Part shown: positions 5,044 through 38,721 of the stretch, piece by piece
How the letters are laid out: every line of letters starts with the position of its first letter
Position numbering within the stretch: the stretch's first letter is position 1
NCBI GenBank assembly: GCA_030917845.1
Contig: JAUPTY010000001.1
Coordinates: forward strand, 5,289 to 69,288
Reading direction: 5' to 3'
DNA length: 64,000 bases
Source: Actinomycetota bacterium
GTDB taxonomy: Bacteria > Actinomycetota > Thermoleophilia > Solirubrobacterales > 70-9
Notes under the pieces: generated by a model
The model's input: the letters and a program-made list of their open reading frames with translations, nothing else
Databases searched by the model: none
What the model was told of the DNA's origin: nothing
Position numbers and translations under genes: made by a program

Positions 5044-6471
5044 TCAGAGAGGCTGAGCAGCCGCCAGTCTGCCCACCAGTTCGTAGTGGCGAAGGAGGCG
5101 ATGGACAGCAAGCAGGTCTGTCTTGACGGTCAGTCGGGCAGCCGCGCCCGTGCGCTCGGCCCTGGCCGGGTCGTCGAGCAAGCCGTCTATCGCGGCGGCA
5201 AAGGCGGGCAGATCCCTGGCGTCGTCGATCAGGACACCTGAGACTCCATCCTCGATCTGGTCCTGGATGCCGCCCAGCCGGCTCGCCACCATCGGCCTCG
5301 ACTTCCACATCGCTTCGGAAACCGTCAGGCCAAAACCCTCGGCAAGGCTCTTCTGGACGACCACATCGGCCCGGCGCTGGATCGCATTGACCATGAAGGC
5401 GTTCTCATCCAGATCCTCCATCGGCAGACTCACCAGATGAACCCGGGCGCGCATTTCTTCGGGCAGCGATTCCCACTGTTCGAGAATCTCCCGGTAAACG
5501 GCGGCGCCCTCGGGGTCATCATCGACTCCGGAGCTGTCGGGCCCGACCAGGGCGAGATGGGCATCGGAATCACGGAGATCCCGGCTGAAGAGGGTGAGGA
5601 GACCGGCATGATCCTTGAGCCGGTCCCACCTCGAAACCTGAATCACCAGAGGAGCATCCAGCGGAAGCCTGGAGTCCTGGACGATCGAGGCCCGGGACGT
5701 CACCTCTCCGACTCCTCCTTCGGCCCGGATGAATTCGGGATTGGTGCCGGGGTCCTCGCCACTCAACCCGATCCGCCCCAGCACTGCCACAACGGTTTCC
5801 TCATCCATCGCCTGGTTCTTCGGTGTGAAGGCGTCAATGCCAGGCGGGATGACTGTGGTCGCCGCCGGGTCGAGCGCCGGCCAGATGTACTGATCCCTTG
5901 AAAAGACACTGCCATCGGCTGCGCCGACCAGATCCCCAAGCAGATCCTGGGCGCCGAGGGCGATTTCATTCGGATCATCAATGCCGATGTGACACCGCCA
6001 GATGACCTTCGCCCCGGTCTCCCGGATTGCGGGAATCAGTCCCGCGGTCTGGGGATCATGCAATAAAACGACGTCGTCGGGGGACACCCGGGCGGCCAGC
6101 CGGGCTGCGCTGTCGGCCAGAAACGCCATGTACGCCTCCCGCTCGGCCGGGCCCAGAGGGCCGCCATCTCCGGGATCGCCATGAAGTTGATTGTGAATTC
6201 GCTTGGTCAGCAGGAAGAAGGAGGGGTCCTCCTGGAGGACAACCCACCGGGTGTCGACTCCGGCATCAAGTACGTAGGGCAAATAGGCACGGAGCATTTC
6301 CGCGACACCACCGCCCCGGGCGGTTGAGTTGACGTTCCAGACAACCCGGCCGCTCAGGCTTTCGCGGGCGGCCGCGGCGGCCGCGGCAATCGGTTCGTAC
6401 TCGTCCTCAAGCAGGTCGCGGTACCGCAGGAGCGGCTGGGGTCCGAGGGCAACGCGTTCAGGTTCTGCCAT
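5044..6471 (-). CDS. Glycosyltransferase family 4 protein (TreT-like trehalose synthase candidate)
   Basis: 475 aa. The N-terminus VNSTARGGGVAEMLRAYLPY...FFLLTKRIHNQLHG resembles TreT-type enzymes. The C-terminal GT-B motif is EGFGLTVSEAMW. Confidence 0.75.
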   Translation of the reverse strand: MAEPERVALGPQPLLRYRDLLEDEYEPIAAAAAAARESLSGRVVWNVNSTARGGGVAEMLRAYLPYVLDAGVDTRWVVLQEDPSFFLLTKRIHNQLHGDPGDGGPLGPAEREAYMAFLADSAARLAARVSPDDVVLLHDPQTAGLIPAIRETGAKVIWRCHIGIDDPNEIALGAQDLLGDLVGAADGSVFSRDQYIWPALDPAATTVIPPGIDAFTPKNQAMDEETVVAVLGRIGLSGEDPGTNPEFIRAEGGVGEVTSRASIVQDSRLPLDAPLVIQVSRWDRLKDHAGLLTLFSRDLRDSDAHLALVGPDSSGVDDDPEGAAVYREILEQWESLPEEMRARVHLVSLPMEDLDENAFMVNAIQRRADVVVQKSLAEGFGLTVSEAMWKSRPMVASRLGGIQDQIEDGVSGVLIDDARDLPAFAAAIDGLLDDPARAERTGAAARLTVKTDLLAVHRLLRHYELVGRLAAAQPL

Positions 6472-21588: not shown

Positions 21589-22548
21589 TCAGCCGGGGAG
21601 CTTCTGCTGCGTCTCCAGCACCGGCTGGAAAGGGTGATCCCCACTCGAAAGCGAGTCGATAGCGGCATCGGGAGTGCAGGCCAGCAAGGACCGGTCATCA
21701 TTGTCCAGGGACCTCTCCAGAAGCTGCCAACTGACCGGGAACGAGACAGAGGGGCTAGGTGTGGCCCTCATCGAGTAGACGGCGACCGTGGTCTTGTGCC
21801 GGGAGTTCTGACTCCAGTCGATCAGGACTTTCCCTTTCCTCAGGCTCCTGGTCATTCTGGATACGACCTGATCAGGCAGTTCGCTCTCAAACCCGCGGGC
21901 GAGGCTGTGGGCGAAGGCACCGGTTCGCTCGAAGTCGATGTCTGGTGAGTTCAGCGGCAGATAGACCTGAATGCCTTTTGAGCCGGAGATCTTCGCGAAT
22001 GACCGGAGTCCCTGACGTTCGAAGGTTTCATTGATCAGCAAGGCGATCTCAGCGCAGTTAAGAATGCCTGCTGGAGATCCAGGGTCGAGGTCAAAGACGA
22101 CCGAGTCAGGGACAGTGGGGGTCTCGACCCGGGCCAGAGGGACATGGAGTTCGATCGAGGCGAGATTGGCCATCCAGATGAGAGTTGGCAGGTTGTTGAT
22201 CAGGCAGTACTCGATCGATCCGCCCCTGGAGTCGCTGCTGACAGTTGCGGTTTCGACCCAATCGGGGCGGTAGTCGGGACAGTGCTTCTCCCAGAATCCG
22301 GGTTCGCTCGTGCCATCAGGGAACCTCCGCATGGTCACCGGACGGTCGCGGAGGTGGGGGAGGAGCACGGGCGCAACGGCCGCGTAGTAATCGATCAGGT
22401 CCCGTTTGCGGAATCCCGACTCCTGGTAGAGAACCCGGTCCAGGTTGGAGAGCGTCATCGGCGTTCCGTCCACTTCCAGCTTCCATTTATCCGGACCACC
22501 GACCGCCTCTGAAGTGAGGCGACGATCATCGTAAAGATCAAGACTCAA
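21589..22548 (-). CDS. ligD: NHEJ polymerase/primase (stand-alone LigD Pol domain)
   Basis: 319 aa with a TTG start overlapping the ligase stop (TTGA). LSNLDRVLYQESGFRKRDLIDYYAAVAPVLLPHLRDRPVTMRRFPDG...FDLDPG is the LigD PolDom pattern. Confidence 0.88.
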   Translation of the reverse strand: MSLDLYDDRRLTSEAVGGPDKWKLEVDGTPMTLSNLDRVLYQESGFRKRDLIDYYAAVAPVLLPHLRDRPVTMRRFPDGTSEPGFWEKHCPDYRPDWVETATVSSDSRGGSIEYCLINNLPTLIWMANLASIELHVPLARVETPTVPDSVVFDLDPGSPAGILNCAEIALLINETFERQGLRSFAKISGSKGIQVYLPLNSPDIDFERTGAFAHSLARGFESELPDQVVSRMTRSLRKGKVLIDWSQNSRHKTTVAVYSMRATPSPSVSFPVSWQLLERSLDNDDRSLLACTPDAAIDSLSSGDHPFQPVLETQQKLPG

Positions 22549-23489
22549 GGCCGCTCCTCCCTGACGACCTCAGCCGGAGTCTTGTCCGGGCGAAATCCCA
22601 GGAACACGGGGTTTCGGACCCGGCCGTCATGGGTCCATTGCGTGAACCTGACCTCGATTGCGCACTCCGGTCGTGCCCAGCGGGCATTGGCAGGAATGCT
22701 GGCCCGGTCAGCGGTATCAAACGGGGACTCCAGCTGGCTCTTCTCCTCGAGATCCGCCGTGATCCGTGACAGCAGCTGGTCGTCGAAGCCCGTGCCCACA
22801 CGCCCGGCAAATCGCAGCCGGGCTGTTCCCGGCTCGTAGTAGCCAAGCAGCAGAGAGCCAAGCGTTCCCGACCGATGGCCTTTGCCCGGCAGCCAGCCGC
22901 CCACGACGAACTCCTGCCTTCTTGAGTTCTTCATCTTGATCCAGTGCCGGCTCCGCTTGCCTTCGAGGTAGGGGCTGTCAAGCTGCTTGGCGACGATGCC
23001 CTCCAGGCCCAGATCCGATGTGGCGGCCAGAACTTCAGACGGTTCGCCCGCGAGCCGGTCCGGCACGGACCAGCGCTTCCCTTCGATCCTGAGCGACTCG
23101 AGCTTCTCCCGTCGAGCTTCGTATGGCTGATCCCGGAGGTCGACACCGCCTGCCCAGAGCAAGTCAAAGATCAGGAAGGTTGACTTGAGATGCCGCTCGG
23201 TGCGCGACTGCATCAACTGGAAGTCGGGGTGGCCGAGATCATCGAAAACCACCAGTTCCCCATCAAGAATCGTCCCCCGGGCCGACTTGTCCTGACCAAG
23301 CTCATTCAACTCCGGAAACGACGGCGTGATGTCATTGAGCCGACGGCCCTGAAGCCGGAGACCGCGATCACAGAAGGCGATGGCCCGGTAACCATCCCAC
23401 TTGACCTCGCATTGCCAGCGTGAAGAATCGTCAGCCTCACCAAGGTGGGCTTTCATCGGTTCGATCCGGGATGGCATCCTGTTTGGCAC
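22545..23489 (-). CDS. ligD: ATP-dependent DNA ligase (stand-alone LigD ligase domain)
   Basis: 314 aa with the adenylation motif I CEVKWDGYRAIAF. The start is GTG 23489 or ATG 23477. Confidence 0.9.
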   Translation of the reverse strand: MPNRMPSRIEPMKAHLGEADDSSRWQCEVKWDGYRAIAFCDRGLRLQGRRLNDITPSFPELNELGQDKSARGTILDGELVVFDDLGHPDFQLMQSRTERHLKSTFLIFDLLWAGGVDLRDQPYEARREKLESLRIEGKRWSVPDRLAGEPSEVLAATSDLGLEGIVAKQLDSPYLEGKRSRHWIKMKNSRRQEFVVGGWLPGKGHRSGTLGSLLLGYYEPGTARLRFAGRVGTGFDDQLLSRITADLEEKSQLESPFDTADRASIPANARWARPECAIEVRFTQWTHDGRVRNPVFLGFRPDKTPAEVVREERP

Positions 23490-23502
23490 AGTGATTACCG
23501 GT

Positions 23503-23527
23503 TTACCCGTCCTGGTGTCAATGAACC
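23503..23527 (-). promoter_or_regulatory. SigB/SigF-type promoter candidate (ligase-polymerase operon)
   Basis: The minus strand reads GGTT (23527-23524), N15, then GGGTAA (23508-23503). Confidence 0.5.
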
Positions 23528-23540
23528 GGATTCGGGGTAC
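23515..23540 (+). promoter_or_regulatory. SigB/SigF-type promoter candidate (ku-ku operon)
   Basis: GTGT (23515-23518), N16, then GGGTAC (23535-23540). This is 10 nt upstream of the ku ATG and physically interleaved with the divergent ligase promoter. Confidence 0.5.
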
Positions 23541-23549
23541 TTAGACTCC

Positions 23550-24329
23550 ATGGCACCGCGCTCTATCTGGAACGGAACCCTCGCCTTCGGAATGGTTCGA
23601 GTGCCGATCAAGCTCTACTCGGCGATCGAGCCGAAGGGCATCGGCTTTCGCGAGATTCACACGAAGGACGAGTCGACTTTGCGTCACCGGCGAATCTGCA
23701 GGAAAGAAGGGAAGCCGGTCGACAAGGACCAGATCGGAAAGGGATACGAAATCTCATCCGGCGAGTACGTGCTGCTGGAACCGGACGAGATCAACGCCGC
23801 TGCGGGTGACGGAGCCAAGACCATCGAGATCGAGGAGTTCGTTGATGTCAGTTCGATCGATCCATTCCAGTTCAGCAAGACTTACTTCCTCGGTTGCCGC
23901 GAAGATGCCACACCATTCTCGGTTCTTTCCGCGGCCCTCGAGAAGACAGGCAGGGCAGGAATCGGCCGATTTTCTTTCCACAATCGCGAGTATCTGGTCG
24001 CGGTCAGGGCCTTTCAGGAACGGCTCGCGCTCCACACCCTGAGGTTCTCGGATGAGATCGTCGACGTCGGTGATCTCGACATGCCCGGGGGCGGAAAGAA
24101 GCCGACCGCCAAGGAAGTGAAGATGGCACGCCAACTCATTGCCGGGCTCACGGACGAGTTCGAGCCCGACGGCTTCCAGGACGAGTATCGCGCCGCAGTG
24201 ATGGACCTGATTGAGCGAAAGGCTGAAGGAAAGAAGCCGAAGAAGAGCAAGTCGAAGAAAAAGAAGCCAACCGGCGATCTTTCGAAAGCGCTCGAAGAGA
24301 GCCTTGCGGCTCAGGGAGCTTCGAACTGA
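23550..24329 (+). CDS. ku: Ku protein (NHEJ DNA-end binding), paralogue 1 with a Lys-rich tail
   Basis: Starts at ATG 23550: MAPRSIWNGTLAFGMVRVPIKLYSAIEPKGIGFREIH. The C-terminus is KKPKKSKSKKKKPTG. Confidence 0.92.
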   Translation: MAPRSIWNGTLAFGMVRVPIKLYSAIEPKGIGFREIHTKDESTLRHRRICRKEGKPVDKDQIGKGYEISSGEYVLLEPDEINAAAGDGAKTIEIEEFVDVSSIDPFQFSKTYFLGCREDATPFSVLSAALEKTGRAGIGRFSFHNREYLVAVRAFQERLALHTLRFSDEIVDVGDLDMPGGGKKPTAKEVKMARQLIAGLTDEFEPDGFQDEYRAAVMDLIERKAEGKKPKKSKSKKKKPTGDLSKALEESLAAQGASN

Positions 24330-25240
24330 TGCCGCGTCCGCTCTGGAAAGGGACTGTCTCCTTCGGTCTGGTCAGTGTGCCGGTCGAGCTCTACTCCGCG
24401 ATCACGGACCGGGGAGTTCACTTTCGCGAGATCCACACCAGCGACGGATCGCCGGTGAAGCATGTCCGGTACTGCGCTGCCGAGGACAAGCCGGTCGATC
24501 AGTCAGAAGTCGGTCGGGCCTACGAGCTTGATGACGGTCGGCTGATTCCGGTCACCGACGAGGAACTGGAGAACCTGGAACCCGAGAAGACCCAGACCAT
24601 CGAGATCGAAACCTTCGTCACCCGCACCGATGTCGATCCAATCCGGTTCGACCATCCCTATTACATGGTCCCGGGGAACAGGTCGGTCGGAACCCTGCGG
24701 GCCTACCGGCTGCTGGTCGAGGCAATGACCGAAGGGGACCTCCTGGCGATGGGGACCTTTGTAATGCGCAGCCGCGGGTATCTGGCGGCGATCCGGGTCA
24801 GGGGAGATGCGCTGGCACTTTCGACCATGCACTTCCCGGCCGAGATCAGGTCGATATCCGATCTGCCCGGGCCGGCCGACGCCAAGATCGCCGCCGCCGA
24901 GCTCGACGACATGGTCGCGATCGTCGGCGAGCTATCCGCAGACTGGGATCCGGATTCATACAGCGACCGCTACAGAGCCCGACTGAAGAAGGTGATCACC
25001 AGCAAGAAGAAGGGCCGCAAGATCAAGGCTCCTGCCGAACCTGAAGAAGCACCAACAGCCGCCCCGGACCTGATGGCAGCCCTGAAGGAGACGCTCGCCA
25101 GCTCGCGCCGGCGCAGCCGCAGGCCGAAGGACCTCGAGGGCCTGTCAAGGGATGACCTTTACGAGCTTGCCTCGAAACGGGGCCTGAAGGGAAGGTCGAA
25201 GATGAACAAGGGCCAGTTGATCGAGGCTCTCGGAGACTGA
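24329..25240 (+). CDS. ku: Ku protein, paralogue 2 with a C-terminal HeH/Rho_N (SAP-like) module
   Basis: MPRPLWKGTVSFGLVSVPVELYSAITDRGVHFREIH. Its start overlaps the ku1 stop by 1 nt (TGATG). The tail is LSRDDLYELASKRGLKGRSKMNKGQLIEALGD. Confidence 0.92.
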   Translation: MPRPLWKGTVSFGLVSVPVELYSAITDRGVHFREIHTSDGSPVKHVRYCAAEDKPVDQSEVGRAYELDDGRLIPVTDEELENLEPEKTQTIEIETFVTRTDVDPIRFDHPYYMVPGNRSVGTLRAYRLLVEAMTEGDLLAMGTFVMRSRGYLAAIRVRGDALALSTMHFPAEIRSISDLPGPADAKIAAAELDDMVAIVGELSADWDPDSYSDRYRARLKKVITSKKKGRKIKAPAEPEEAPTAAPDLMAALKETLASSRRRSRRPKDLEGLSRDDLYELASKRGLKGRSKMNKGQLIEALGD

Positions 25241-25263
25241 TTCATTCGTGAGGCGACGGGTAC
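25239..25263 (+). promoter_or_regulatory. SigB/SigF-type promoter candidate (small HeH protein)
   Basis: GATT (25239-25242), N15, then GGGTAC (25258-25263). Confidence 0.5.
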
Positions 25264-25325
25264 CCGCCTGGCAAGGTCGGGTTCGATCCTGACTCTGAAA
25301 ACAAGACGAGAAGGAGCTGATCAGG

Positions 25326-25592
25326 ATGCCAAAGGGCTCAGATCACGGACCGAGCGTCAAAGACGACAAGCTCTACGAAGAATTGCGCGAAGACAGTGCC
25401 AGCAAGGAGAAGGCAGCCCGGATCGCCAACGCGAAAGCTTCCTGTGAGAACGTCGGAAAGAAGGGCGGCGAAGCCGAGGACTACGAGGACCGCACCGTAG
25501 AGGAGTTGCGCGACCGGGCCGGGGAAGTCGGCATTGACGGCCGCTCAGACATGGACAAGAAGGAACTGATCAACGCCTTGCGCAACCACTGA
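25326..25592 (+). CDS. Small acidic protein with a C-terminal HeH/Rho_N-like module
   Basis: 88 aa with KDDKLYEELREDSASKEKAARIANA and RTVEELRDRAGEVGIDGRSDMDKKELINALRNH. Confidence 0.8.
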   Translation: MPKGSDHGPSVKDDKLYEELREDSASKEKAARIANAKASCENVGKKGGEAEDYEDRTVEELRDRAGEVGIDGRSDMDKKELINALRNH

Positions 25593-27036: not shown

Positions 27037-27852
27037 TCAGACGCTATGGGACAGCTGCCGGGATTCCTTTTCGGACTTTTCTTCGACCAACTCCTCGTTC
27101 AGGCTGTCGAAGATCTTGCGGAGCTTCCGTGAGACGTGCATCTGGGAACAGCCAATTCTCTCGGCAATCTGCGATTGCGAGAGCTCCTCGCGGTACCTGA
27201 GGATCACGATCTCGCGGTCATCCTGCTCGAGTGCCTCGAGGGCCTCCGTGAGCAGCATCTTTTCCTCGATCCTCTCGTAGCCGGGATCCTCGCTGCCGAG
27301 TACATCTTCCAGGGATGCCTCTTCTTCGCTTTCGGCAGACGCAAGGCCGATGGCGTGCCTCGTTCGAACCGCTTCCTTCGCTTCGAGCACCTGTTCGACC
27401 GGGCAGTCCATGGCGGCAGCGACTTCGGTCAGGCTCGCCGACCTGTCCAGCTCACCAGAAAGGTCACGTTCAACCGACTCGAGGCGGCCGATCCTCTCGT
27501 AGATTCCACGCGGGACCCTGATCGCAGACACGCGGTCGCGGAAATGCCGCTTCAGCTCGCCGTGAATGGTGGGGGAGGCGAAAGCGAGAAACGGAAGTCC
27601 CCGCTCGGGGTCGTACCGGTCGATCGCGTTGACCAGACCGAGACTCGCGATCTGGATCAGGTCATCGAGTGACTCGGCCTCCCCCCGGTACCTGATTGCA
27701 ATGCTCTTCGCGTAAGGAAGAAACCGCTCGGTCAACTCCCTCCGTACCGCCGGTTCATCTCTTCTTTGCCAAAGGTCTTCTTCGTCCAGAAGGCCCGGGT
27801 GATCCTGCCTGTGAATGCGCCGGTTCATGCCTGAATGCTCCTTGCTGCTCAA
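27037..27852 (-). CDS. SigB/SigF/SigG-family (group 3) RNA polymerase sigma factor
   Basis: 271 aa. LDDLIQIASLGLVNAIDRYDPERGLPFLAFASPTIHGELKRHFRDRVSAIRVPR covers region 2. The region 4 HTH is SQSQIAERIGCSQMHVSRKLRKI. Confidence 0.9.
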   Translation of the reverse strand: MSSKEHSGMNRRIHRQDHPGLLDEEDLWQRRDEPAVRRELTERFLPYAKSIAIRYRGEAESLDDLIQIASLGLVNAIDRYDPERGLPFLAFASPTIHGELKRHFRDRVSAIRVPRGIYERIGRLESVERDLSGELDRSASLTEVAAAMDCPVEQVLEAKEAVRTRHAIGLASAESEEEASLEDVLGSEDPGYERIEEKMLLTEALEALEQDDREIVILRYREELSQSQIAERIGCSQMHVSRKLRKIFDSLNEELVEEKSEKESRQLSHSV

Positions 27853-27931: not shown

Positions 27932-28462
27932 TCAACCTCGGCCCCGTTTCCATGTCCAGAGCCGTTTGGACCGTCGTTCAGCTTCCCTGGAAATGATCCT
28001 CTGGAAGTTCTTGCCTCCTCGATCAAACGTGCTGATCACTGCTTCCGGTGTGGCCGCGGAGTCAAAGTTGCACGGGATCCAGTCGGCGGCCCGGACCTGG
28101 TGTATCCCAGATCTTCCGGCGGCCTCGGAATCGTCATACCACCATGGACCGATCACTTTGCCGAGTCGAAAGACGTCATCCGAAGTGCGAGTCCAAACCA
28201 GGCTTCCTTCGGGCAGACCAGCGAAACGGACGAGCATGCGCGCGGCCTTGTCTCCGTGACTCTCGGCCGTCCGGTTCACCGCCTCCTCGAGCGTCTCGGG
28301 AACTGCTTCCAGCGGTTCACCGATACCGACAATCCCGCGTTCCGTCCCCAGCCGGGATCCCTGGAAGGCCCCCGAATCGAAACTCCGGGCTCGCATCGGA
28401 GCCCGAAATACGCACGGTGCTTCGTCATTGAATTGTCTATCAGCCAAGGCGTTCTGCTTCAC
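27932..28462 (-). CDS. Hypothetical protein upstream of and co-directional with the sigma factor gene
   Basis: 176-aa ORF with a GTG start. I recognise no motif (it is not HATPase/RsbW-like or STAS-like). Coding is supported by composition and by its position filling the gap. Confidence 0.55.
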   Translation of the reverse strand: MKQNALADRQFNDEAPCVFRAPMRARSFDSGAFQGSRLGTERGIVGIGEPLEAVPETLEEAVNRTAESHGDKAARMLVRFAGLPEGSLVWTRTSDDVFRLGKVIGPWWYDDSEAAGRSGIHQVRAADWIPCNFDSAATPEAVISTFDRGGKNFQRIISREAERRSKRLWTWKRGRG

Positions 28463-37306: not shown

Positions 37307-37326
37307 CTCCAGGGCGCCCGGTCAGG

Positions 37327-37351
37327 GTTTCATCGCGACGACACGGGGTAG
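37327..37351 (+). promoter_or_regulatory. SigB/SigF-type promoter candidate (CDGSH gene)
   Basis: GTTT (37327-37330), N15, then GGGTAG (37346-37351). It ends 9 nt before the ATG, so the transcript would be near-leaderless. Confidence 0.55.
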
Positions 37352-38696: not shown

Positions 38697-38721
38697 GTAC
38701 CCGTTATTAGCCGAACTACAC
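38697..38721 (-). promoter_or_regulatory. SigB/SigF-type promoter candidate (heme-oxygenase-like gene)
   Basis: The minus strand reads GTGT (38721-38718), N15, then GGGTAC (38702-38697). Confidence 0.5.

Follow-up and report, generated by a model that had tools for sequence, protein, structure and literature searches.

Two coupled ku genes and a split LigD

The 64,000-nucleotide (nt) stretch of contig JAUPTY010000001.1 considered here, referred to as the window and derived from an uncultured Solirubrobacterales bacterium, contains a compact locus for non-homologous end joining (NHEJ). Two paralogous genes for the end-binding protein Ku, ku1 and ku2, follow one another on the forward strand, and across a short spacer from them the genes for a stand-alone ligase and a stand-alone polymerase, both of LigD type, face the other way. 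An initial annotation of this DNA had drawn attention to the separate ligase and polymerase genes, the overlap of the ku genes and the back-to-back promoter candidates between the two arms. The features concerned are as follows.

21589-22548, reverse strand: pol, a stand-alone LigD-type polymerase/primase (PolDom), 319 amino acids (aa), TTG start
22545-23489, reverse strand: ligase, a stand-alone LigD-type ATP-dependent ligase (LigDom), 314 aa from GTG 23489 or 310 aa from ATG 23477
23503-23527, reverse strand: ligase-arm SigB/F-type promoter candidate, GGTT (23527-24), N15, GGGTAA (23508-03)
23515-23540, forward strand: ku-arm SigB/F-type promoter candidate, GTGT (23515-18), N16, GGGTAC (23535-40), 9 nt to the ATG
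23550-24329, forward strand: ku1, Ku paralogue with a short tail, 259 aa from ATG 23550; PF02735, TIGR02772
24329-25240, forward strand: ku2, Ku paralogue with a basic extended tail and a C-terminal HEH/Rho_N domain, 303 aa; PF02735, PF07498

Ku1 and Ku2 score almost identically with the bacterial Ku model TIGR02772 (Ku_bact), at 264.6 and 264.8 bits for a cut-off of 150, PF02735 matches them at E = 1e-38 and 1e-42 respectively, and the nearest matches among solved Ku structures are the bacterial entries 8v53, 9i91 and 9vnq. The mechanical open reading frame (ORF) list stretches ku1 to a spurious GTG at 23445, the real start being the ATG at 23550. At the join, TGATG, the ATG of ku2 and the TGA of ku1 have one base in common, and the ORF coordinates bear out the 1-nt overlap that had been noted there.

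A genome scan with the Ku1 alignment yielded 80 species-representative loci, all from Thermoleophilia, and counts out of 81 in what follows are these loci plus the window. At the species level a Ku1 orthologue is followed directly, on the same strand, by a Ku2 orthologue in every case (80/80). Of the 81, 31 overlap by 1 nt at the junction and 46 have a gap of 0-5 nt (77/81 in total); only one exceeds 5 nt. The ku2 start is preceded by a Shine-Dalgarno (SD) sequence that lies within the 3′-terminal part of ku1, with a median pairing energy of -8.1 kcal/mol as against -4.0 kcal/mol for coding controls (p = 3e-21). At one locus (L045, 6001-7594) the Ku1 frame has no stop before the contig end and Ku2 lies in another frame, probably through an assembly indel, and it was left out of the statistics. 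Contigs from soil metagenomes carry genes identical to the ku2 of the window in an unchanged gene order, the closest homologues with a name are in metagenome-assembled genomes of Solirubrobacterales and Thermoleophilaceae, and this is apparently the sole type of ku locus in the sampled class.

On the leftward arm the TTG start of pol and the TGA stop of the ligase gene share TTGA, the two ORFs being distinct, out of frame with each other and overlapping by 4 nt, just as had been proposed, and overlaps of the same -4 kind (ATGA or TTGA) between ligase stop and pol recur in relatives (L009-L012, L014, L017). The TTG start is supported by an N-terminal extension of pol (RLTS..GGP.K..) that is kept in relatives. 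Pol matches PF21686 at E = 8e-81 and TIGR02778 (ligD_pol) with 263.9 bits (cut-off 214.7); its best PDB match is the PolDom of Mycobacterium tuberculosis LigD (2iru, 186 bits), with 143 bits for 6sa0 and 5op0, which we take to be mycobacterial Prim-PolC structures. The ligase contains PF01068 and PF04679 and reaches 273 bits with TIGR02779 (NHEJ_ligase_lig; cut-off 227.75) and 128 bits with the LigC-type model NF006078 (cut-off 296), and its best PDB match is the LigDom of M. tuberculosis LigD (1vs0, 211 bits). Because the M. tuberculosis LigD domains are the closest and the LigC-type cut-off is missed, the pair is, by these scores, a split LigD and not an excision-repair pair.

The conserved N-terminus of the ligase, MPxxIEPMKA, starts at ATG 23477. 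That initiation is obligatorily at this ATG was considered and partly withdrawn in view of conserved in-frame starts at a leaderless distance from the -10 element: all seven close relatives have an open in-frame GTG or ATG 10-14 nt past the ligase-arm GGGTA, and for that reason GTG 23489 is a credible leaderless start, with ATG 23477 as the alternative. The divergent spacer had been given as 60 bp, which stands with the GTG start and becomes 72 bp if ATG 23477 is used.

When the whole 64 kb was searched by tblastn with two LigD proteins that include a phosphoesterase (PE) domain, nothing matched that domain at E < 0.1, in keeping with the statement of the initial annotation that no phosphoesterase gene is visible. 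This negative is meaningful because the identical queries detect PE in nine related loci, at 40-56% identity; a PE gene may sit elsewhere in the genome. The window locus lacks a fusion of PE, LIG and POL in one polypeptide, and its split layout is ‘non-conventional NHEJ’ under the definition of Sharda et al. 2020 (PMC7719229), who found such NHEJ to be over-represented in Actinobacteria. Both the placement and the architecture of ligD differ across Thermoleophilia loci, the clade of the window being characterized by the divergent, PE-less ligase-polymerase pair. Elsewhere, 3′ of the ku pair, there are PE, ligase and polymerase as split genes (L016, L020), a ligase-polymerase fusion (L065) or a fused PE-ligase-polymerase (L077, L083, L088), and the fully split versions are joined by 4-nt overlaps. 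At a further locus (L022) ligase and polymerase are one continuous ORF, by fusion or frameshift.

Divergence between Ku1 and Ku2

The two Ku proteins of the window are 37% identical, and within one genome the identity ranges from 31 to 44% (20-genome sample). In neighbor-joining trees (Kimura distances, 200 bootstraps) the Ku1 clade is monophyletic in 100% and the Ku2 clade in 99.5% of replicates, their internal topologies mirror each other, and the two are sisters in 80%. Ku proteins of Streptomyces, Firmicutes and proteobacteria fall outside the clade that they form together. The alphaproteobacterial Ku3-like and Ku4-like proteins (Rhizobium etli p42e, L092; Paracoccus; Sinorhizobium meliloti) make up clades of their own with 25-30% identity to Ku1 and Ku2, and because of this the Ku1/Ku2 duplication appears to be old and independent of the alphaproteobacterial one; orthology of Ku1 or Ku2 to the Ku3 and Ku4 clades was not found in these trees.

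The paralogues differ consistently at the C-terminus. Ku1, with a median length of 257 aa, ends just past the minimal C-terminal motif DL..AL..SL, and Ku2, with a median of 303 aa, continues with a lysine- and arginine-rich basic region and an extended basic tail. The median tails are 32 aa (two lysines, one arginine) for Ku1 and 78 aa (eight of each) for Ku2, so that a basic C-terminal extension is borne asymmetrically, by one subunit only. In the clade of the window the Ku1 linker is lysine-rich too, yet there is no extension past the minimal motif. The motif itself can be seen in both tails of every printed sequence, while a strict regular expression picks it up in 41% of Ku1 and 30% of Ku2. 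A SAP-like HEH domain is present in 33 of 80 Ku2 proteins and in none of 80 Ku1 proteins; in the Ku2 of the window it is PF07498 at aa 268-301 (26.8 bits, cut-off 24.9). Work on Bacillus subtilis Ku assigns LigD binding to the minimal C-terminus, and control of threading and bridging to the basic extension (PMC4889933). Prokaryotic Ku has been said to lack SAP except for one Streptomyces coelicolor protein (PMC4889933), and SAP- or HEH-tailed Ku is commoner in Actinomycetota than that lone example suggests. The Ku proteins of two Streptomyces plasmids (L093, 395-1381; L094, 401-1417) end in an HEH-like motif, L.K.ELY..A....I.GRS.M...EL.

Each of the two clades has its own fixed residue at ten alignment columns, one of which shows a charge reversal (Ku1 E27, Ku2 R26). 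At two others, H144/R147 and V171/R174, Ku2 has an arginine like most of the other Ku sequences fetched, and Ku1 is non-basic. Against the DNA-pore residues of mycobacterial Ku, mKu, as defined in PMC12784962, the DNA contact equivalent to Y21 is a tyrosine in 71 of 80 Ku1 proteins and is variable in Ku2, most proteins of either clade have a basic residue where mKu has R46, R62 and R88, and E65 is conserved. Since both clades keep most of the pore residues, neither paralogue is degenerate as far as its sequence indicates. Degenerate complementation, in which the paralogues would have lost different DNA-contact or dimer salt-bridge residues of mycobacterial Ku, was considered and set aside; both retain most of them, and the comparison gave no decisive signal for a heterodimer or against one.

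Interleaved candidate promoters and the sigma factor nearby

In the divergent spacer the ligase -35 element sits between the -35 and -10 elements of the ku arm, that is, inside the ku spacer. This interdigitation of two SigB/F-type candidates, which the initial annotation had pointed out, can be read directly from the sequence and has the same layout in the seven closest species, where the spacer measured from the conserved ligase ATG is 71-78 bp and the ligase-arm GGGTA is 22-26 nt from that ATG.

GGGTA is found 10-12 nt before the start of ku1 in about 56 of the 81 loci, in flanking DNA that is unconserved. When 58 loci were aligned on it, the only other clear upstream signals were a G at -20 and a T at -17, each in 44 of 58; the T and A that follow GGG are invariant through the way in which this set was selected. 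The resulting profile, GNNT-N16-GGGTA, fits the published consensus of SigB/SigF-type promoters, which is GTTT-N14-19-GGGTA for Mycobacterium smegmatis SigF (PMC4694148) and has a GNNT or GTTT -35 for the SigB homologues of S. coelicolor, where the mapped start is 7-10 nt past the -10 hexamer (PMC8346170). On the opposite strand a GGGTA with G-N-N-T 15-16 nt upstream is present in all 11 loci with a divergent ligase. Across the window G[GT]TT-N14-17-GGGTA occurs 7 times, the ligase-arm candidate included, as compared with 0.62 +/- 0.77 in shuffles, GGGTA alone 72 times (41 +/- 6 expected), and GGGTA-N9-13-ATG/GTG opening an ORF of at least 60 aa 7 times (1.5 +/- 1.2 expected). A scan with the sigma-70 consensus gave one weak site, at 23401-23428 within the ligase coding region, and a scan of the locus found no terminators.

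The distance between promoter and start codon merits separate consideration. In the window ku1 has the arrangement GGGTA-N10-ATG, a -10 element within about 7-12 nt of the initiator that leaves no room for an SD sequence. Because the gap from hexamer to ATG is 9 nt and the S. coelicolor starts are 7-10 nt past the hexamer, a leaderless ku1-ku2 mRNA is the simplest reading, and the ligase mRNA is probably leaderless too, from GTG 23489. SD energetics were tried as a means of telling a leaderless from an SD-led ku1 and gave no separation; the G-rich -10 itself pairs with the anti-SD, upstream regions that bear GGGTA having a median of -6.2 kcal/mol and controls -4.0 kcal/mol, and the position-specific profile was used instead. 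One subclade (L065, L073, L076, L077, L080-L083, L087, L088) has no GGGTA upstream of ku1 (about 5900-6000 in these loci) but TAGCCT or TAGACT 7-10 nt before the ATG. There the ku operon has apparently exchanged its promoter for a housekeeping-like leaderless one, with stress-sigma control replaced at least once.

A candidate for the cognate sigma factor is encoded close by, together with a small gene that has a promoter candidate of its own.

27037-27852, reverse strand: SigB/SigF/SigG-family (group 3) sigma factor gene, the candidate regulator, TIGR02980, 3.5 kb away
25326-25592, forward strand: DUF7218 protein, 88 aa, with a C-terminal HEH/Rho_N domain; PF23855 (E = 2e-19) and PF07498
25239-25263, forward strand: SigB/F-type promoter candidate upstream of the DUF7218 gene, GATT-N15-GGGTAC

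The sigma protein has Sigma70 regions 2, 3 and 4 and matches TIGR02980 (SigBFG) with 213 bits (E = 6e-63), the SigF model NF005514 with 196 bits, and SigF and SigB models next best. Of the 80 related loci, 12 have a homologous gene no more than 6 kb from the ku pair, its arrangement varying from one to another. That one alternative sigma factor could switch on both arms, as the initial annotation suggested, is supported by the conserved ku-arm motif, the mirror-image element of the ligase arm and this nearby SigB/F/G-family gene. Its comparison with SigG of B. subtilis is sound as regards the family of the sigma proteins; as regards the promoters, the motif is SigB/SigF-type, and the SigG consensus is different.

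The DUF7218 gene falls inside the end coordinate given for the locus in the initial annotation (25592), which makes no mention of it. Its HEH domain is 40% identical to that of Ku2, a DUF7218 gene is within 6 kb of the ku pair in five relatives (L011-L014, L022), and the protein may be an accessory DNA-binding stress protein. The bipartite motif, with GGGTA or GGGAA as its -10, precedes not only this DUF7218/HEH gene, but also a CBS pair and genes for DJ-1/PfpI, DUF6328 and HAD hydrolase proteins; it further precedes an FMN reductase gene (GGGTA-N11-ATG) and a 107-aa ORF, and sites farther off are before genes for a CDGSH protein (GGGTA-N10-ATG), a haem-oxygenase-like enzyme and a DUF305 protein. 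SigB/F-type candidates are dense at 23.4-30.5 kb, with additional ones at 37326-37350, 38697-38721 and 54450, and several have the form GGGTA-N10-11-ATG. The cluster of candidates by the sigma gene has the look of a general-stress island. An ORF of 154 aa (27932-28396, reverse strand) comes immediately before the sigma gene in the same orientation, preceded by GTTT-N16-GGGAA and with no Pfam match, in what we take to be the usual position of an anti-sigma factor (RsbW/UsfX); it could encode an unrecognized regulator, and the sigma operon could be autoregulated.

A proposed asymmetric Ku: interpretation, alternatives and precedents

Taken together, these features make it rather likely that the locus is a stress- or dormancy-induced NHEJ module with an asymmetric Ku1-Ku2 heterodimer and SigB/F-type control. 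The spacer of 60-72 bp would hold two interdigitated promoters, back to back, for a SigB/SigF-type sigma factor, probably the one encoded 3.5 kb off. Transcription from the rightward one would yield a leaderless mRNA of ku1 and ku2 on which ku2 is translated by coupling, its ATG overlapping the ku1 stop and its SD sequence lying inside the end of ku1, and because of this coupling Ku1 and Ku2 would be made together in near-equal amounts. From the leftward promoter a leaderless or short-leader mRNA for ligase and polymerase, translationally coupled through TTGA, would be produced. Ku1 and Ku2 would then most likely come together as a heterodimer, an asymmetric ring for binding DNA ends in which Ku2 provides the one arm that tethers DNA, and the ring would recruit the separate LigD-type ligase and polymerase with no local 3′-phosphoesterase. 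Co-production of the two Ku proteins, and possibly a heterodimer, had already been suggested from the coupling in the initial annotation; the 80/80 pairing, the tight junctions, the embedded SD sequence and the clade-specific tails and residues all point the same way.

Several observations weigh against this interpretation. Co-occurrence and coupling would fit two co-expressed homodimers too, the heterodimer being proposed from sequence, and both paralogues have full cores with which each could in principle homodimerize. The bootstrap value for Ku1 and Ku2 as sisters is just 80%, with a small outgroup set. On the regulatory side, the ku -35 of the window itself (GTGT) is a weak match, the distance from the ligase-arm GGGTA to GTG is 14 nt, longer than the 10-13 nt of relatives, and the sigma gene falls just under the subfamily cut-off of TIGR02980 (213 as compared with 234 bits). 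The pairing of the G-rich -10 with the anti-SD is such that energetics alone leave a translational role possible, and, with TAGCCT or TAGACT in place of GGGTA before ku1 in one subclade, stress-sigma control is not universal.

Of the alternatives, the one with the most substance is that Ku1 and Ku2 are two separate, specialized homodimers which the operon and its coupling serve just to co-express. A Ku2 homodimer with basic or HEH arms could, for example, be devoted to bridging or nucleoid tethering, and a tail-less Ku1 homodimer to threading and LigD recruitment. Both paralogues are complete Ku cores that pass the Ku_bact equivalog model and keep most DNA-pore residues as well as the E65-equivalent interface residue, the solved bacterial Ku structures that match them are all described as homodimers (two structure papers), and in biochemical assays Ku-like proteins of Streptomyces were protective of DNA ends and stimulated ligation (PMC5124664). 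We nevertheless judge this explanation unlikely, if far from negligible, since co-occurrence at 80/80 in fixed order with an overlap or a gap of at most 5 nt exceeds what co-expression of independent proteins needs, the complementary asymmetry of the tails is kept throughout the class, and in the analogous bacterial case there is genetic evidence for both Ku proteins acting in a single pathway (PMC6379672).

Much less probable is that the GGGTA before ku1 is an SD-like translational signal or a site for some other factor, with the locus constitutive or under a different type of promoter. A distance of 10-12 nt from motif to start is long for an SD sequence, and the independent G (-20) and T (-17) at N16 match a SigB-type -35 and have no translational rationale. 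The same bipartite motif is also present 30-70 nt from the starts of other genes (DUF7218, CBS, DJ-1, HAD, haem-oxygenase-like), where it cannot be an SD sequence, its 7 occurrences compare with 0.62 expected, and a SigB/F/G-family sigma gene is linked to the locus. What can be said in favor of a non-promoter role is that the anti-SD pairing is moderate (median -6.2 as compared with -4.0 kcal/mol in controls), that the ku -35 of the window is degenerate (GTGT), that on our reading the TAGCCT or TAGACT at a similar position in the subclade resembles a housekeeping -10, and that the text of the paper on the SigF regulon of M. smegmatis (PMC4694148) mentions neither ku nor ligD. The least probable explanation, to which we give very little weight, is that ligase and polymerase are a LigC/Prim-PolC-like excision-repair module which merely adjoins ku and is not its NHEJ partner. 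Mycobacteria do have operons of a stand-alone ligase and a Prim-Pol (LigC/Prim-PolC) that act in base excision repair, and the window has no PE domain that could be found. But with 273 bits the ligase clears the cut-off of the NHEJ LigDom model (228) and is far under that of the LigC-type model (128 as compared with 296), pol is nearer to the M. tuberculosis LigD PolDom (186 bits) than to 6sa0 or 5op0 (143 bits), other Thermoleophilia have the orthologous ligase and polymerase fused with PE as a full LigD beside the same ku pair, and the ligase arm and ku have the interdigitated promoter region in common. A LigC/Prim-PolC identity was rejected on the model and PDB scores.

For the favored interpretation, an inducible asymmetric Ku, the closest precedent is in S. 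meliloti, where ku3 and ku4 form an operon acting in one pathway with ligD4 and a eukaryote-like heterodimer was proposed on genetic evidence (Dupuy et al. 2019, PMC6379672). The two genes always co-occur in alphaproteobacteria, their tails are asymmetric, with Ku3 lysine-rich and Ku4 not, and putative sites for RpoE2, a general-stress sigma factor, precede the ku operon as well as the ligase gene (PMC6379672). To describe bacterial Ku as normally a homodimer from one gene, as the initial annotation did, is to follow the usual account, but that overlooks this Ku3-Ku4/RpoE2 precedent, which, as genetic evidence from one alphaproteobacterium, is the sole challenge to that account that we found (PMC6379672). 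The likenesses to the window are extensive: two ku genes of different clades in one operon that co-occur across a taxon, an adjacent ligase gene, asymmetric C-terminal tails, stress-sigma-type sites before both the ku operon and the ligase, and a proposed heterodimer. The differences begin with a separate duplication, Ku1 and Ku2 being sisters with 25-30% identity to the Ku3-like and Ku4-like proteins. The sigma factor is of the group 3 SigB/F type in the window and an extracytoplasmic function (ECF) sigma, EcfG/RpoE2, in S. meliloti, and the 1-nt overlap at the ku junction contrasts with a 12-nt gap in the ku-ku-lig operon of R. etli p42e. The leaderless geometry, the SAP-like HEH on Ku2, the split LigD functions and the lack of a local PE further set the window apart, and while ku3-ku4 is a secondary pathway beside the Ku2 of S. 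meliloti, the window type is apparently the sole ku locus in the sampled class. By sequence comparison, then, the window locus resembles the Ku3-Ku4/RpoE2 system in its workings but does not belong to it by descent; the concept is already published for S. meliloti, and the window is an independently evolved variant with correspondingly lower novelty. Two S. meliloti regions were tried as sources of ku3-ku4 and rejected: pSymA 215-260 kb (L089) is without the operon and has one ku beside SMa0424, listed as ligC (PMC6379672), and the pSymB match (L091) is a ligD-ku pair; R. etli p42e was used in their place.

With eukaryotic Ku70/Ku80 there is a resemblance in that two duplicated Ku-core subunits are involved of which one, Ku70 or here Ku2, has a C-terminal SAP/HEH on a flexible basic linker. 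The pair in the window differs in having neither vWA domains, nor the DNA-PKcs-binding region at the C-terminus of Ku80, nor orthology to these subunits, its heterodimer is proposed from the genes, and, unlike the case of Ku70, the HEH domain is in just 33 of 80 Ku2 orthologues. Canonical bacterial NHEJ relies on one Ku homodimer and a multidomain LigD, as in M. tuberculosis (Rv0937c/Rv0938) and B. subtilis (YkoV/YkoU, under SigG). The window shares with it ku and ligase genes that are divergent or adjacent and LigD-type LigDom and PolDom nearest to those of M. tuberculosis LigD, and departs from it in its two Ku paralogues, separate ligase and polymerase, lack of PE and SigB/SigF-type motif. 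As a further likeness, expression in B. subtilis is tied to SigG, a SigB/F/G-family sigma factor (PMC5124664, PMC6379672). Streptomyces, likewise Actinomycetota, has kuA, kuB and kuC and separate ligase, polymerase and nuclease genes, with expression in late growth phase and spores, according to Hoff et al. 2016 (PMC5124664). Its LigD domains as separate genes and its several Ku proteins, some with an HEH/SAP-like tail (L093, L094; PMC4889933), recall the window, but these Ku proteins fall outside the Ku1+Ku2 clade. A search of the literature found no report on NHEJ in Thermoleophilia.

A broader proposition can be put forward only tentatively, its chances being a little short of even: that in Thermoleophilia an obligate asymmetric Ku1-Ku2 heterodimer is the standard NHEJ end-binder, the third independent heterodimeric Ku after those of eukaryotes and alphaproteobacteria, with the whole kit switched on as a unit at dormancy or desiccation from leaderless interdigitated SigB/F-type promoters. 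Tail-less Ku1 might then correspond to Ku80, and Ku2, whose tail is basic and often includes SAP/HEH, to Ku70, an assignment made with the same reserve. That a deep-branching actinobacterial class keeps two differentiated and coupled ku genes from an apparently independent duplication has the appearance of a second origin, within bacteria, of a pair in the style of Ku70/Ku80, and suggests that an asymmetric Ku ring has a recurring selective advantage, for instance through a single DNA-tethering arm or a single LigD-docking geometry. At about 260 plus 300 aa, it would be a minimal system in which to ask why eukaryotic Ku is a heterodimer. The arrangement GNNT-N16-GGGTA-N10-ATG also provides a testable link between a general-stress sigma factor and mutagenic end joining in abundant, rarely cultured soil bacteria, with a bearing on desiccation survival and stress-induced genome change.

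Elsewhere in the window there are no tRNA genes, and the sole Rfam match is a cyclic di-AMP riboswitch (RF00379) at 2366-2509 on the reverse strand, with 77 bits for a gathering score of 38.

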